Source: Escherichia coli 042
GTDB taxonomy: Bacteria; Pseudomonadota; Gammaproteobacteria; Enterobacterales; Enterobacteriaceae
Length of the DNA stretch: 64,000 nucleotides
Assembly (NCBI RefSeq): GCF_000027125.1
Contig: NC_017626.1
Reading direction: 5' to 3' (one strand)
Part shown: piece after piece, positions 47,863 to 51,645 of the stretch
Layout of the letters: every line of letters begins with the position of its first letter
Numbering within the stretch: position 1 is the first letter of the stretch
Made by a program: the position numbers and the translations under genes
Notes under the pieces: model-generated
What the model saw: the letters and a program-made list of their open reading frames with translations, nothing else
Databases searched by the model: none
What the model was told of the DNA's origin: nothing

Positions 47863-48264
47863 ATGAAGAAAATTATCTTTTTTCTGTTCGTGGGGCTTTT
47901 ATTTTCGGTTCAGGCAGATGCTGCGCGGGGAAGAAAACCCTGCTCGGGTGCTAAAGGTGGTATTTCACACTGTACGTCAGACGGACGTTTTGTCTGCAAT
48001 GACGGAAGTCTGAGTCAGTCGAAGCGCCTTTGTTCTGGTTATGGCGTGGCACCCGGCAAACGTCAGGTGAAATCACCGGTCACCACGAAGCCGGTTCAGA
48101 AGGAAAAATCAGCGGCTGTCCGGAAGGTGTCACAACCGTCGGTGGCTGAGAAAAATGAGGCTGTGCCGGTCACTGAACCCCGCAACCCTACCTGTGCGCC
48201 GCTTTATATGGCCAGCAAACCCGGATTTACGCATCTGCCCATTTGTTCCGGTAATCAGTATTAA
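47863..48264 (+). CDS. Predicted secreted Cys-containing protein
   Basis: Signal peptide MKKIIFFLFVGLLFSVQADA; Cys pairs; low-GC. Confidence 0.45.
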   Translation: MKKIIFFLFVGLLFSVQADAARGRKPCSGAKGGISHCTSDGRFVCNDGSLSQSKRLCSGYGVAPGKRQVKSPVTTKPVQKEKSAAVRKVSQPSVAEKNEAVPVTEPRNPTCAPLYMASKPGFTHLPICSGNQY

Positions 48265-48419
48265 TCTGACACTGAAATAGCAGAGGAATCTGTGCTCAGC
48301 CTGCAGTTAATCCTGTAGTGGCTGGCATCATAAAGCCGGACAACCTTCCGGGTATAAATATTTCCGGAGGGCGTTAATCAAAGATATTCAGTTACTGAGA
48401 AGGAAAATAAAGGAAAGTC

Positions 48420-49664
48420 ATGGCAGGAGGAAAAAAAGATGATAATGCAGCGGGATTTGTCCTGATTTTAGTTTGCGTTATTCTCTGGGGGATTTATGTG
48501 GCGGTCAGGGCGCTGATAAATCTTAATGAGCGCTTTATTGATGCAGTATCGAATCCGGCAGGTATTATTGGTTTGTTTTTTGGTTTGCTTACTGTATTTG
48601 CAATTTTACTTCGTTTTTTTATTTACCGGAGACTCAGAAAGAAAACAGCAGCCTTTGAGCAGGCCGTTTCAGAGCTGGTTCAGAGAGAGCGGGGTTTTAA
48701 TGAAACTGTCAATGCCGCGATAGCCCGGGGAATACGACAGGAAAAGGAGCAACTGGCCAGACGTCGTGAGGAATTTCATACCGCCAGACAGAAGGCCAGC
48801 CGTGCAATGCAACGGATTGTTGATTCCGCCTGGAAATTTAAGGCGAAGACTCTGCTGGCTGGTGTAACGATTAATAACTGGCAAAGCAAATATGACCAGC
48901 TTCGTAAGGAAAGAGAGGCTTACGCTGCTGTCAGTGAGAAAATAGCCTTTCTTAACCTGGAAGATAATTCTGACCGGGAGAGTATCAGGCAACAGTTTCT
49001 GGACAAAGTGGCATTGCTGGAAAAAGCGCAGGAAGAGAAGGAATATCAGGCAGAGCTTAAGCGTCAGATGCGTGAAGAAAAAGAGCGTCAGGATGAACCT
49101 GAACGGCGCCAGCGGGAAGCGGAAGAGGAAGAACGGCGTCTTGCTGAGCAGCAGAAACTGATTGAGGAGGCGCTGCGCGCAGCAGAAGGGGCTCACAGGG
49201 AGGAGTTAGAGAAACAACGCCTGGAGCTGGAACAGAAAATTCAGGAAGCGCATGCGCAGTATGAACGTGCTAAATCCATGGCTCAGCTTACGAAACAGGG
49301 GCATGTTTATATCATTTCGAATATTGGTTCGTTTGGTGAGGATGTCTTTAAAATTGGCATGACCCGACGGCTGGAACCCATGGACAGGGTCAAAGAGTTA
49401 AGTGGTGCTTCTGTTCCGTTTGATTTTGATGTTCACGCCATGATTTCCTGTGATGATGCGCCTGCGCTGGAAAAAACACTTCATGACAGTCTGGAAAAAT
49501 ACCGCATTAACAGGATTAACCTGCGTAAAGAATTTTTCCGCGTGAAGCTTGAGAAAATCATTAATGAAGTGGAGCGTCACCACGGGCAGGTGGAATATGT
49601 GGCTGACCCGGCGGCGCTGCAGTACCTGCAGAGTCTGGAATACGCGGAAAATGAAGCTGCCTGA
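48420..49664 (+). CDS. Membrane-anchored coiled-coil protein with C-terminal T5orf172/GIY-YIG-like nuclease domain (DUF4041-type architecture)
   Basis: Two N-terminal TM helices; long charged (E/R/K/Q) coiled-coil; C-terminus GHVYIISN...FKIGMT... resembles GIY-x10-YIG. Confidence 0.65.
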   Translation: MAGGKKDDNAAGFVLILVCVILWGIYVAVRALINLNERFIDAVSNPAGIIGLFFGLLTVFAILLRFFIYRRLRKKTAAFEQAVSELVQRERGFNETVNAAIARGIRQEKEQLARRREEFHTARQKASRAMQRIVDSAWKFKAKTLLAGVTINNWQSKYDQLRKEREAYAAVSEKIAFLNLEDNSDRESIRQQFLDKVALLEKAQEEKEYQAELKRQMREEKERQDEPERRQREAEEEERRLAEQQKLIEEALRAAEGAHREELEKQRLELEQKIQEAHAQYERAKSMAQLTKQGHVYIISNIGSFGEDVFKIGMTRRLEPMDRVKELSGASVPFDFDVHAMISCDDAPALEKTLHDSLEKYRINRINLRKEFFRVKLEKIINEVERHHGQVEYVADPAALQYLQSLEYAENEAA

Positions 49665-49857
49665 CAGTCAGTGTTCTGATTTTACCCCGGCCGGATATAA
49701 CAGAAGGGATATCTGCAGATACCCTGCAGCATGGTTCACAGTATTCTGGTCATGTTAATGATTCTGTTTTTTATTTCTGAATAAAGCGATACCCACGATA
49801 TAACATCCGTGGATGTCGGTGGTGATTATTTTTTTGTTCACAGATTAAGGTGCGTTT

Positions 49858-51645
49858 ATGGCGAAACTGATAAATGTATCGGCGTCCACTGAGGAGAGAA
49901 TGACGCCCGGGGAGAGGAGGGTAGCTTCACGACTGGAGAGCTTTCTGAATGATGACTGCCTTGTCTGGTACGATATTCCGGTGGGACGGAAAAACCGGCA
50001 TCCGGATTTTGTCATTATTGACCCGGAGAACGGACTGGTATTTCTGGAGGTCAAGGACTGGACGGTTTCCACGCTGCGCCAGGTAAATCAGGAGCAGGTC
50101 ACGCTGGAAACCGACGGTCTTCTGAAATCAGAAATCAATCCGCTGGTACAGGTTCGTCGTTATGCCTGTGATACGGTTAATGCCTTACCTGCAAACCCGT
50201 GCTTACGGCAGAATGACGGTCAGTATAAGGGACGGCTGAACCTGGCCTGGGCGTATGGTGTGGTGTTTACCCGCATTACCCGTCAGCAACTGAAGACACT
50301 GGCAGGGAATGATGAGAATGCGGTGGAAAAAATTTTTCCTTCAGCACAGACAATCTGCCAGGATGAAATGACGCAGTCTGTTTTACCTGAAGTATTCCGG
50401 CAAAAAATTGCCGGGATGTTTACCACGGGATTCAGAACCCGGGTGACACCCCGGATGAGAGATATTCTGCGCGCCCATCTGTTTCCTGAAGTGACCGTGA
50501 AACAGAACTCACAAATCAAAATTATGGATATTCAGCAGGAGATTCTGGCCAGAAATATTGGTGACGGGCATCGTGTCATTCATGGTGTGGCCGGTTCCGG
50601 AAAAACCATGATTCTTTTGTTCCGTTGCCTTTACCTGGCTGAAACCACACCCGGAAAGATTCTGGTGTTGTGCTACAACATTACCCTGGCCAGCTATCTG
50701 CGGGAATGCATTGAAGCCAGAGGGCTGGCGTCACGGGTTACGGTATCCCATTTTCACAGCTGGTGTGCCTCAATGGTAAAACGCCACGGTATTAAGGTGA
50801 CGGCCGACAGAAAAGAATATCCTGATAAATGCTTCAGTACACTGGAAGAGGCCGTGAACAGCGGAAAAATCACCCGAACCGGATATGATGCTGTACTGGT
50901 GGATGAGGGGCATGATTTTGACAGTCGCTGGCTGGCCCTGATTGCCCGTCTGTTTGATAACGCATCCCGTTCACTGCTCCTGATGTACGATGACGCCCAG
51001 TCCATTTACCGGCGGGAGCGGGCCCTGAACTTTTCTCTGGCCAGTGTGGGGATTCAGGCACAGGGACGCACTTCTGTCCTGCCGGTCAATTATCGTAATC
51101 CGAAACGCATTCTGCACTTTGCTTATGCATTCTCCCGCGAGTATTTTGAAAAACATCAGAACCGTGAAATACCGCTCGTTCAGCCACAGGCGGGCGGTGA
51201 AGAGGGTACAGAGCCGGAAATCCTGCGTTGTGCTTCTGAACGTGATGAAGCCAGACAAGTTGCAGACTGGCTGGAGAAGCGCCATGTCCTGTGTGGTCAC
51301 TGGAGTGATATGGCTGTGCTGTGTCCGACAGAGCGTTCAGCGCAACAATTGCAGGACGTTATGACACTACGCGGGGTACCTTTTGCCACCTGTTTTGACA
51401 GGGAAGGCAAGAAGACATACTCGCGACGTAAGGATGTGGTGCATTTACTGACGTACCAGAGCAGCAAGGGGCTGGAGTTCCCGTATGTGGCGGTTATCAA
51501 TGCGTCTTTCGTGCACTCTGGTGCAGCGGATGAGTCTGAAGTGATTCCGGTGCTTTATGTGGCGTTCACCCGGGCAACCCGTGAATTACTGGTGACCTGT
51601 TACCGTGAAAACAGTATCAGTCGCCACCTTGAGGATTTTGCATAA
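49858..51645 (+). CDS. NERD nuclease domain fused to UvrD-like SF1 helicase (Nhi-like defence architecture)
   Basis: N-terminal NERD-like block (HPDFVIIDPENGLVFLEVKDW); Walker A GVAGSGKT; VLVDEGHDF; C-terminal SKGLEFPYVAV...FTRATREL. Confidence 0.75.
   Translation: MAKLINVSASTEERMTPGERRVASRLESFLNDDCLVWYDIPVGRKNRHPDFVIIDPENGLVFLEVKDWTVSTLRQVNQEQVTLETDGLLKSEINPLVQVRRYACDTVNALPANPCLRQNDGQYKGRLNLAWAYGVVFTRITRQQLKTLAGNDENAVEKIFPSAQTICQDEMTQSVLPEVFRQKIAGMFTTGFRTRVTPRMRDILRAHLFPEVTVKQNSQIKIMDIQQEILARNIGDGHRVIHGVAGSGKTMILLFRCLYLAETTPGKILVLCYNITLASYLRECIEARGLASRVTVSHFHSWCASMVKRHGIKVTADRKEYPDKCFSTLEEAVNSGKITRTGYDAVLVDEGHDFDSRWLALIARLFDNASRSLLLMYDDAQSIYRRERALNFSLASVGIQAQGRTSVLPVNYRNPKRILHFAYAFSREYFEKHQNREIPLVQPQAGGEEGTEPEILRCASERDEARQVADWLEKRHVLCGHWSDMAVLCPTERSAQQLQDVMTLRGVPFATCFDREGKKTYSRRKDVVHLLTYQSSKGLEFPYVAVINASFVHSGAADESEVIPVLYVAFTRATRELLVTCYRENSISRHLEDFA

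Follow-up and report, generated by a model that had tools for sequence, protein, structure and literature searches.

Why does a type VI secretion system (T6SS) gene cluster carry, between two of its own genes, a putative membrane-anchored nuclease and a nuclease-helicase fusion? The question arises from a 64,000-nt stretch of Escherichia coli 042 (contig NC_017626.1), hereafter the window, to which all positions refer. The window is a segment of an E. coli pathogenicity island, with 100% identity to strain HH35 and near-identity to enteroaggregative E. coli (EAEC) 55989, and contains a Sci-1-type T6SS cluster with Tle1-EAEC that extends from tssB at 20875 through tssE at 47275-47706. Five open reading frames (ORFs) follow tssE, every one on the + strand and the last being a tagA-like gene. 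An original prediction, made from the letters of the DNA, had described three same-strand genes between tssE and the tagA-like ORF as one defence-like cassette, and the coordinates of these genes were confirmed. The 3' end of the Sci-1-type cluster appears to offer two cargo slots, one between tssE and tagA (slot 1) and one downstream of tagA (slot 2). Slot 1 would here hold two independent single-gene modules aimed at nucleic acid. On this reading, which we regard as probable, a compact relative of the anti-phage nuclease SNIPE and a NERD-UvrD fusion are independent defence genes in a T6SS-anchored defence hotspot of Enterobacterales. The features concerned are:

47275..47706, + strand: tssE, left flank of slot 1; annotated by PGAP in HH35; orthologues with Pfam GPW_gp25
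47863..48264, + strand: small secreted Cys-rich protein of the YdcA family, 133 aa; NCBIfam PRK10040, hydrophobic N-terminus, 6 Cys
48420..49664, + strand: putative compact SNIPE/PD-λ-1-related membrane-anchored GIY-YIG (T5orf172) nuclease, 414 aa
49858..51645, + strand: fusion of a NERD (PD-(D/E)xK-type) nuclease with a UvrD/PcrA-like superfamily 1 (SF1) helicase, 595 aa
51710..52015, + strand: hypothetical ORF, 101 aa; annotated in HH35 and 55989 as well as in an E. coli strain whose site is empty
52070..53437, + strand: tagA-like gene, 455 aa; bounds slot 1 on the right and slot 2 on the left
53652-54212 (kwaA) and 54215-55045 (kwaB), + strand: Kiwa-like pair recognised by PADLOC; slot 2 cargo, downstream of tagA

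The genes of slot 1

PD-λ-1 was discovered by Vassallo et al. (2022; PMC9519451) and renamed SNIPE by Saxton et al. (2025; bioRxiv 10.1101/2025.11.03.685801), who describe a nuclease located in the membrane that cleaves the DNA of phages as it is injected and thus acts in direct defence. Its protection is directed against siphoviruses. In SNIPE the transmembrane (TM) segment blocks self-cleavage, DUF4041 binds DNA and is needed for defence, and residue E414 is essential; among its homologues two TMs occur in 7%, and the N-terminal 'adapter' is hypervariable (Saxton et al., bioRxiv 10.1101/2025.11.03.685801). SNIPE acts as a single gene (PMC9519451; bioRxiv 10.1101/2025.11.03.685801). The 414-aa protein, which the original prediction could not place in a named family, is a relative of PD-λ-1/SNIPE according to both PADLOC and BLASTP. 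The abortive-infection effector that its shape had suggested also has to be reconsidered, SNIPE being described as a direct-defence nuclease at genome injection. The protein matches two PADLOC PD-Lambda-1 models (E 5e-88 and 5.4e-82), of which it covers profile positions 264-476 of 491 or 189-475 of 496 (43-58%), and scores 294 bits versus 658 (positions 1-485) for an authentic SNIPE. The latter is the 500-aa product of the 'PD-lambda-1' gene of phage PhiR26_1, taken as authentic because all nine residues named by Saxton et al. are present. In a BLASTP comparison with this reference, only residues 211-406 of the window protein (linker plus nuclease) align, at 53% identity (E 5e-61), and E351 takes the place of SNIPE E414.

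The 414-aa protein begins with a TM hairpin (~12-68), continues with a helical middle part (~69-200) and a charged linker that is conserved (201-290), and ends in the nuclease (291-414). Its hydrophobic segments (~7-36 and 42-70) have basic residues on either side, and the AlphaFold2 (AF2) model shows a helical hairpin (~12-68) and is all-helical up to residue 292. The two-helix hairpin is the predicted inner-membrane anchor and would leave the N- and C-termini on the cytoplasmic side. Residues 294-386 at the C-terminus match Pfam T5orf172 (E 9.8e-17) and MUG113 (E 1e-18), and Y297, K311, G313, R316, R317, H339, N364, and E371 are invariant in alignments of 57 and 42 sequences. The expectation of a two-TM coiled-coil protein ending in a T5orf172/GIY-YIG-like nuclease was thus borne out by Pfam, AF2, and the hydrophobic segments. 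A sequence search of the PDB with the protein gave zero matches, and Foldseek with the full AF2 model found nothing in the PDB at E<=0.001, the weak matches to the GIY-YIG protein Slx1 having E about 1-2.

Beyond the T6SS-linked clade, the closest relative is L22 of phage phiP27 (NP_543074.1; 63% identity over 117-413, E 2e-120, BLASTP), encoded at 3701-4930 of its locus between the Q antiterminator and stx2e genes of this Stx2e-converting phage. Late-operon morons usually occupy such a Q-stx-type position. Another compact relative, with two TMs, is located in a Mu-like prophage. When the first 209 residues alone were searched against 1.84 billion representatives, 35 clusters were retrieved, mostly fragments of the window clade, and the few full-length ones have the same middle region. 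No function is described for the prophage 'GIY-YIG nuclease family' morons, i.e. phiP27 L22 and its relatives. Exclusion and defence genes are a typical load of prophage morons, and the occurrence of the compact form there therefore supports a defence role. Judged from the alignments, the compact subfamily is one in which the anchor, linker, and nuclease are kept and half of DUF4041 is gone. By homology to SNIPE, the 414-aa nuclease would be held at the membrane and kept off the chromosome, and would cut foreign DNA that crosses the inner membrane at phage genome injection. Its target range and its recognition partner probably differ from those of SNIPE, because the middle region is a trimmed, divergent DUF4041.

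The third gene likewise conforms to what had been read from the sequence, a NERD/UvrD fusion. Pfam detects NERD at residues 17-110 (E 6.4e-10) and UvrD-helicase, UvrD_C, and UvrD_C_2 across 226-583, and the motifs EVK, GVAGSGKT (Walker A), DEGH, and FTRA are all intact. PGAP places the start at 49900 rather than at 49858 as in the 595-aa ORF; the latter is favoured because the N-terminus 'MAKL...' is conserved in other genera. The PADLOC model C3a187 ('NERD+UvrD') is matched end to end (residues 1-594 versus profile 1-556 of 559, E 8.7e-140), so that a PADLOC search, as had been proposed for this region, links both nuclease genes to anti-phage models. The relatives of the fusion in the PDB are PcrA and UvrD. 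Its helicase half also matches PADLOC GajB models (E down to 2.7e-21), and no GajA or Old model was matched by the neighbouring ORFs. 'Nhi-like' defence proteins are listed with NERD PF08378 (PMC10952713). The resemblance to Nhi that had been proposed stands for the architecture, an N-terminal nuclease followed by an SF1 helicase. Neither the full protein nor its NERD half matched an Nhi-named PADLOC model, although the content of the library for Nhi is not established. In Nhi nuclease-helicase immunity, reportedly treated by Bari et al. in 2022, the helicase is said to drive degradation of phage DNA ends or replication intermediates. If NERD-UvrD works in the manner of Nhi, its PD-(D/E)xK-type nuclease would be supplied with DNA ends or replication intermediates by ATP-driven SF1 translocation, and the gene is plausibly a single-gene defence.

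The two nuclease genes need not travel together. NERD-UvrD is found without the T5orf172 gene on plasmid pE102651_74 and in several hundred E. coli genomes, and in strain HY220605 it lies between ibrA-like and ibrB-like genes. Because each nuclease gene occurs without the other, NERD-UvrD is regarded as an independent module, and the idea of a single cassette has to be given up. A search for NERD-UvrD homologues was dominated by near-identical E. coli entries and revealed no new context. In O157:H7, O55:H7, O111:H8, and O127:H6, only the first ~800 bp of the gene (window ~49856-50654) are present, at 95% identity and abutting an IS66 transposase.

The 133-aa protein was correctly foreseen as secreted and Cys-rich: it has a hydrophobic, signal-peptide-like N-terminal segment (residues 3-22) and six Cys, and belongs to the YdcA family. 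It matches the YdcA/PRK10040 models with E 3.4e-25, which is under their cut-off, and its orthologues carry Pfam YdcA; an alternative ATG is present at 47851. In most Enterobacteriaceae loci, the gene immediately upstream of the T5orf172 gene encodes an orthologue with 61-65% identity, and in Serratia a secreted YHYH/DUF1283 protein occupies this position, so that a gene of one kind or the other almost always precedes the T5orf172 gene. The YdcA-like protein is a travelling companion of the T5orf172 gene. A scan of the region for promoters and terminators yielded three promoter-like sites versus 7.1 expected, and found no + strand intergenic terminator-like site between tssE and tagA.

Cargo between tssE and tagA and downstream of tagA

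The tssE-tagA interval was sampled in two directions, through loci found via the 414-aa protein and through eight clusters found via TssE homologues. Viewed from the protein, the association with T6SS genes is close. Homologues with 70-79% identity, nearly all of 414 aa, adjoin tssE and/or tagA in 12 of 13 informative loci. They lie between tssE and tagA in Enterobacter, Serratia (several species), Pluralibacter, Huaxiibacter, Tenebrionibacter, Kosakonia, Lelliottia, and Salmonella enterica subsp. arizonae, which makes at least eight named genera besides that of the window. One locus (L012) has the T5orf172 gene without T6SS genes nearby. T6SS genes were near none of 39 canonical SNIPE loci. 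Within the sampled loci, the genes share one strand and are separated by short gaps; NERD-UvrD and tagA overlap in Serratia. The mean pairwise identity of the 414-aa protein (82%) is close to that of TssE (84%), compared with 73% for TssF and 62-64% for TssG, TssJ, TssA, and TagA, and its identities correlate with those of TssE (rho 0.88), TssA (0.82), and TagA (0.74); no correlation was found with TssF or TssG. The short gaps and the co-divergence point to long residence.

Viewed from TssE, the interval is far more variable. Two of the eight clusters contain the T5orf172 gene, namely those of S. marcescens and of Citrobacter sp. Cpo090, the cassette of the latter being 95-98% identical to that of the window. 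In Atlantibacter and Apirhabdus, tssE is followed directly by tagA. The slot of Pantoea holds a DUF1283 protein alone, and that of Erwinia (E. billingiae, 6615-11006 of its locus) holds proteins of 620, 260, and 281 aa without a PADLOC match. In a record labelled Edwardsiella tarda, with a T6SS core 96-99% identical to that of the window, the slot is taken by a 173-aa ORF (6665-7186), also without a PADLOC match. The Cronobacter cluster contains a truncated tagA. Among 5426 complete E. coli genomes, 436 carry tagA (at >=80% coverage), 141 the T5orf172 gene, and 138-141 the cassette. One E. coli strain has a clean empty site, in which tssE, the 101-aa ORF, and tagA follow each other and the indel corresponds to window ~47690-51703. 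Because it is empty or differently filled across the TssE-sampled clusters and within E. coli, the tssE-tagA interval is a slot for variable cargo. Members of the compact SNIPE clade keep to this slot, whereas the slot itself often does without them. The loci found via the protein had, taken by themselves, pointed to a dedicated T6SS accessory gene, and the T5orf172 gene was considered as a universal accessory gene of this T6SS lineage, a notion rejected on the two-in-eight count.

Two further genomic situations separate the nucleases from the secretion system or move them along with it. E. coli O104:H4 (FDAARGOS_349) retains intact T5orf172, NERD-UvrD, and 101-aa genes between two deletions, one from mid-tssC through the ydcA-like gene (~22.6-48.3 kb) and one from tagA through the Kiwa pair to ibrB (~52.1-56.8 kb). 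As both nuclease genes persist in O104:H4 without T6SS and tagA, and the T5orf172 locus L012 has no T6SS genes, the nucleases appear independent of the T6SS. The 171-kb IncFIB/IncFII plasmid NZ_CP053574.1 of Citrobacter sp. TSA-1 carries a Sci-1-type T6SS together with ydcA-like, T5orf172, 101-aa, tagA, and ibrAB genes, and is a plausible vehicle for intergeneric transfer. The likeliest reason for the linkage to the T6SS is that the genes have long resided in the slot and were transferred along with the cluster, also on a plasmid, rather than that they take part in secretion.

The 455-aa ORF that separates the two slots matches Pfam ImpA_N (8-109, E 9e-17) and VasL (306-449, E 1e-37) and has a hydrophobic segment at 233-260. 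TagA consists of an ImpA_N domain, a TM segment, and VasL at the C-terminus (PMC6745524), and by its predicted domains the ORF has this architecture and is TagA-like. RefSeq/PGAP splits the gene in HH35 and 55989 into an ImpA_N pseudogene, a 'POTRA' or 'ShlB/FhaC' pseudogene, and a VasL-domain feature that is a pseudogene in HH35 and a coding sequence in 55989; as the ORF comprises 455 uninterrupted codons, this fragmentary annotation looks like an artefact. The neighbouring 101-aa ORF, for which zero NCBIfam or PADLOC matches were obtained, adjoins tagA even at the 'empty' E. coli site, is present in Citrobacter at 85% identity, and is absent from Serratia and Enterobacter.

Downstream of tagA, slot 2 of the window contains adjacent genes for KwaA (PADLOC E 3e-10), with several hydrophobic segments, and KwaB (E 2.4e-12). 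A multi-TM KwaA followed by a DUF4868 KwaB is what defines Kiwa, and the pair fits this description. A Kiwa pair also follows tagA in Citrobacter and in Serratia sp. (69% and 58% identity). Other cargo was found at the same place in the Edwardsiella-labelled strain, with an Old-family ATPase-TOPRIM (E 4e-66), and in S. marcescens, with a CBASS cyclase (E 2e-145) and an E1-like gene. This alternation of Kiwa, Old, and CBASS after tagA is the signature of a defence hotspot.

Some features of the surroundings are noted for completeness. The interval 55086-56947 contains a PAPS-reductase-like gene, an IbrB-like (ParB N-terminal) gene that it overlaps, and, after these, a gene for a PerC-family regulator; the region has weak PADLOC matches to BrxP and DndC. 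Between tssA and tssF, a 230-aa hypothetical protein is encoded (43237-43929) in a low-GC stretch (0.37-0.39 per 500-bp window at 43.25-44.0 kb), and a YidX_N-domain gene takes this position in other genera. TssF and TssG (window 43937-46755) fall into two allele classes, with ~95% identity within and ~61% between them, which do not follow TssE, TssA, and TagA. This discordance indicates that the tssF-tssG module was exchanged between clusters.

Defence genes or partners of the secretion system

Several observations weigh against the defence-hotspot reading. With respect to the protein itself, Pfam DUF4041 (PF13250) gave no match in the 414-aa protein at E<=10, compared with 4.6e-13 for a canonical homologue; of the domains that a Pfam search had been expected to reveal, T5orf172, NERD, and UvrD_C were thus found and DUF4041 was not. 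In hhalign, the middle region and canonical DUF4041 agree in position, but the statistics are weak (E 0.03 over 40 columns). By alignment, the protein is devoid of the SNIPE stalk (59-111) and of DUF4041 residues 135-153 and 167-180. The AF2 model of SNIPE contains a confident helix/beta-hairpin/helix/helix domain (~134-245, pLDDT 92-98), of which the first helix and the beta-hairpin are missing from the 414-aa protein, and the last two helices alone have counterparts, at lower confidence. As DUF4041 is not recognised, the protein is related to SNIPE yet fails one family-defining feature. With respect to its evolution, the compact clade has hardly any members outside the tssE-tagA slot, and its divergence parallels that of TssE, TssA, and TagA. 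Its N-terminal hairpin has a mean identity of 75%, unlike the hypervariable SNIPE adapter, and a conserved hairpin combined with TssE-level conservation would fit a fixed host partner. As for the second nuclease, the name of the C3a187 model could not be traced to a validated system, and a literature search returned no report of an E. coli NERD-UvrD as protective. Defence activity of the compact clade, as suggested by homology and context, is still the best-supported reading.

The alternative that survives best, although we consider it unlikely, is that the 414-aa nuclease belongs to the T6SS as an accessory (Tag) protein, as the YdcA-like protein may do too, and that its hairpin docks on a T6SS membrane component or on TagA. 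Such a protein would act on DNA in connection with T6SS activity, for example by guarding firing sites or by degrading DNA from killed neighbours. The position next to tssE and/or tagA in 12 of 13 loci from at least eight other named genera, compared with 0 of 39 canonical SNIPE loci near T6SS genes, would be expected of a Tag protein. The same is true of the correlation with TssE, TssA, and TagA, of a mean identity behind that of TssE only, and of the conserved hairpin. The same-strand arrangement, with short gaps, the overlap of NERD-UvrD and tagA in Serratia, and no terminator-like site on the + strand between the genes, also fits. However, the gene is missing in six of the eight TssE-sampled clusters, one of them with a 96-99% identical core and some with tssE directly followed by tagA, and in about two-thirds of the E. 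coli genomes that carry tagA. It is intact in O104:H4 after deletion of the T6SS and tagA, and present in the T6SS-free locus L012. Moreover, its nearest relatives are prophage morons, and physical linkage alone would also yield co-divergence. A related and slightly more doubtful scenario is that the compact SNIPE clade was recruited as a working partner of the T6SS, with the hairpin docking on TagA or the membrane complex. No better are the chances that, as such a partner, the nuclease (with NERD-UvrD where present) destroys DNA that gets into the cell where the T6SS is active or because it is. That the protein has any genuine functional connection with the T6SS is, in our estimation, an outside prospect.

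It is still less probable that the T5orf172 protein and NERD-UvrD are the two components of a single system, a membrane sensor-nuclease with a cytoplasmic helicase-nuclease. In E. coli, Citrobacter, two Serratia species, Enterobacter sp., and a metagenome-assembled genome of Enterobacteriaceae, the two genes are neighbours with the same orientation. However, the T5orf172 gene stands without NERD-UvrD in Enterobacter bugandensis, S. inhibens, S. marcescens, Pluralibacter, Huaxiibacter, Salmonella arizonae, Tenebrionibacter, Kosakonia, and Lelliottia. Conversely, NERD-UvrD is found without the T5orf172 gene on pE102651_74, in HY220605, and in several hundred E. coli genomes, and SNIPE works as a single gene.

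The original prediction had also implied that the cassette is a recent foreign insertion into the E. coli T6SS cluster that pushed tagA away. An empty site in one E. coli strain and the presence of the cassette in only 138-141 of 5426 complete genomes would agree with such an event, which we nevertheless judge very improbable. The same gene order recurs across many genera; the proteins there are 70-79% identical and diverge together with the T6SS genes on either side, the T5orf172 protein doing so in step with TssE, TssA, and TagA. Nor can tagA be called unusually displaced, the same layout being common in the lineage. The base composition, described as low-GC, is not deviant either: the GC content is 0.515 for the 133-aa gene, 0.476 for the 414-aa gene, and 0.516 for NERD-UvrD, versus 0.514 for tssE, 0.510 for tssJ, and a window mean of 0.499. 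Genuinely low-GC neighbours are the genes of the Kiwa pair (0.34-0.35). Finally, a T6SS-delivered DNase effector, suggested by the location of a nuclease gene within the cluster and by the N-terminal TM helices known in some effectors, is the least credible explanation, since the vgrG-tle1-tli1-PAAR module lies at 31-37 kb, 11-17 kb upstream, no vgrG, PAAR, or hcp gene is a neighbour, no conserved small immunity gene follows (the next gene is NERD-UvrD or tagA), conservation is far above that usual for effectors, and the homology along the protein is to cytoplasm-facing membrane-anchored defence nucleases and prophage morons.

Under the favoured reading of independent defence genes in a hotspot, both nuclease gene families were already known, and a shortened SNIPE form tied to a T6SS cluster was not previously described. 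No relevant paper emerged when the literature was searched for a link between T6SS clusters and PD-λ-1, GIY-YIG, or defence islands, and the SNIPE preprint does not mention the T6SS (bioRxiv 10.1101/2025.11.03.685801). New with respect to the searchable literature are the compact subfamily that fails DUF4041, its fidelity to the slot, and the two-slot hotspot of Sci-1-type clusters. SNIPE was described recently as a case of location-based self/non-self discrimination (bioRxiv 10.1101/2025.11.03.685801). A compact subfamily without half of the domain that SNIPE uses for DNA and tape-measure recognition could reveal the essentials of this mechanism or another mode of recognition. If the protein were a partner of the T6SS after all, an offensive nanomachine would be physically coupled to a DNA barrier at the point of entry, and a SNIPE-type nuclease would be functional without most of DUF4041. 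Because its flanks are conserved and its cargo alternates between known systems and unannotated genes, the 3' end of Sci-1-type clusters is a practical anchor for defence-gene discovery. By virtue of their slot position, the 620-, 260-, and 281-aa proteins of Erwinia and the 173-aa protein of the Edwardsiella-labelled strain are candidate defence genes, and the 101-aa ORF of the window may be counted among them. The occurrence of the locus in EAEC 55989, and of an intact nuclease remnant in the O104:H4 outbreak lineage (2011), bears on the phage susceptibility of pathogens.

Comparison with known systems

The known system closest to the 414-aa protein is SNIPE. Both are encoded by a single gene and combine a membrane anchor at the N-terminus with a charged alpha-helical linker and, at the C-terminus, a GIY-YIG/T5orf172 nuclease. 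The catalytic Glu is kept (E414 in SNIPE, E351 in the window protein), with 53% identity across linker and nuclease. However, SNIPE has 500 aa, a single TM, and a stalk of ~50 aa, whereas the window protein has 414 aa, a two-TM hairpin, and no stalk. The N-terminus, hypervariable in SNIPE, is conserved in the window clade, and the window gene occupies a T6SS slot. L22 of phiP27 shares the compact architecture and the middle domain with the window protein but differs in its one TM and its unrelated N-terminus.

NERD-UvrD has a UvrD-like helicase core in common with GajB of Gabija. In contrast to Gabija, it contains its own NERD nuclease and lacks GajA (ATPase-TOPRIM), and its best full-length model is C3a187. 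With Nhi, compared by architecture alone, it shares the combination of an N-terminal nuclease and an SF1 helicase in one polypeptide, the helicase of NERD-UvrD being UvrD/PcrA-like. At the level of the locus, the region resembles chromosomal defence hotspots in having variable cargo between conserved flanks, with Kiwa, Old, CBASS, and the SNIPE-like gene alternating. It differs from them in that the flanks are here the T6SS genes tssE and tagA within a secretion cluster.

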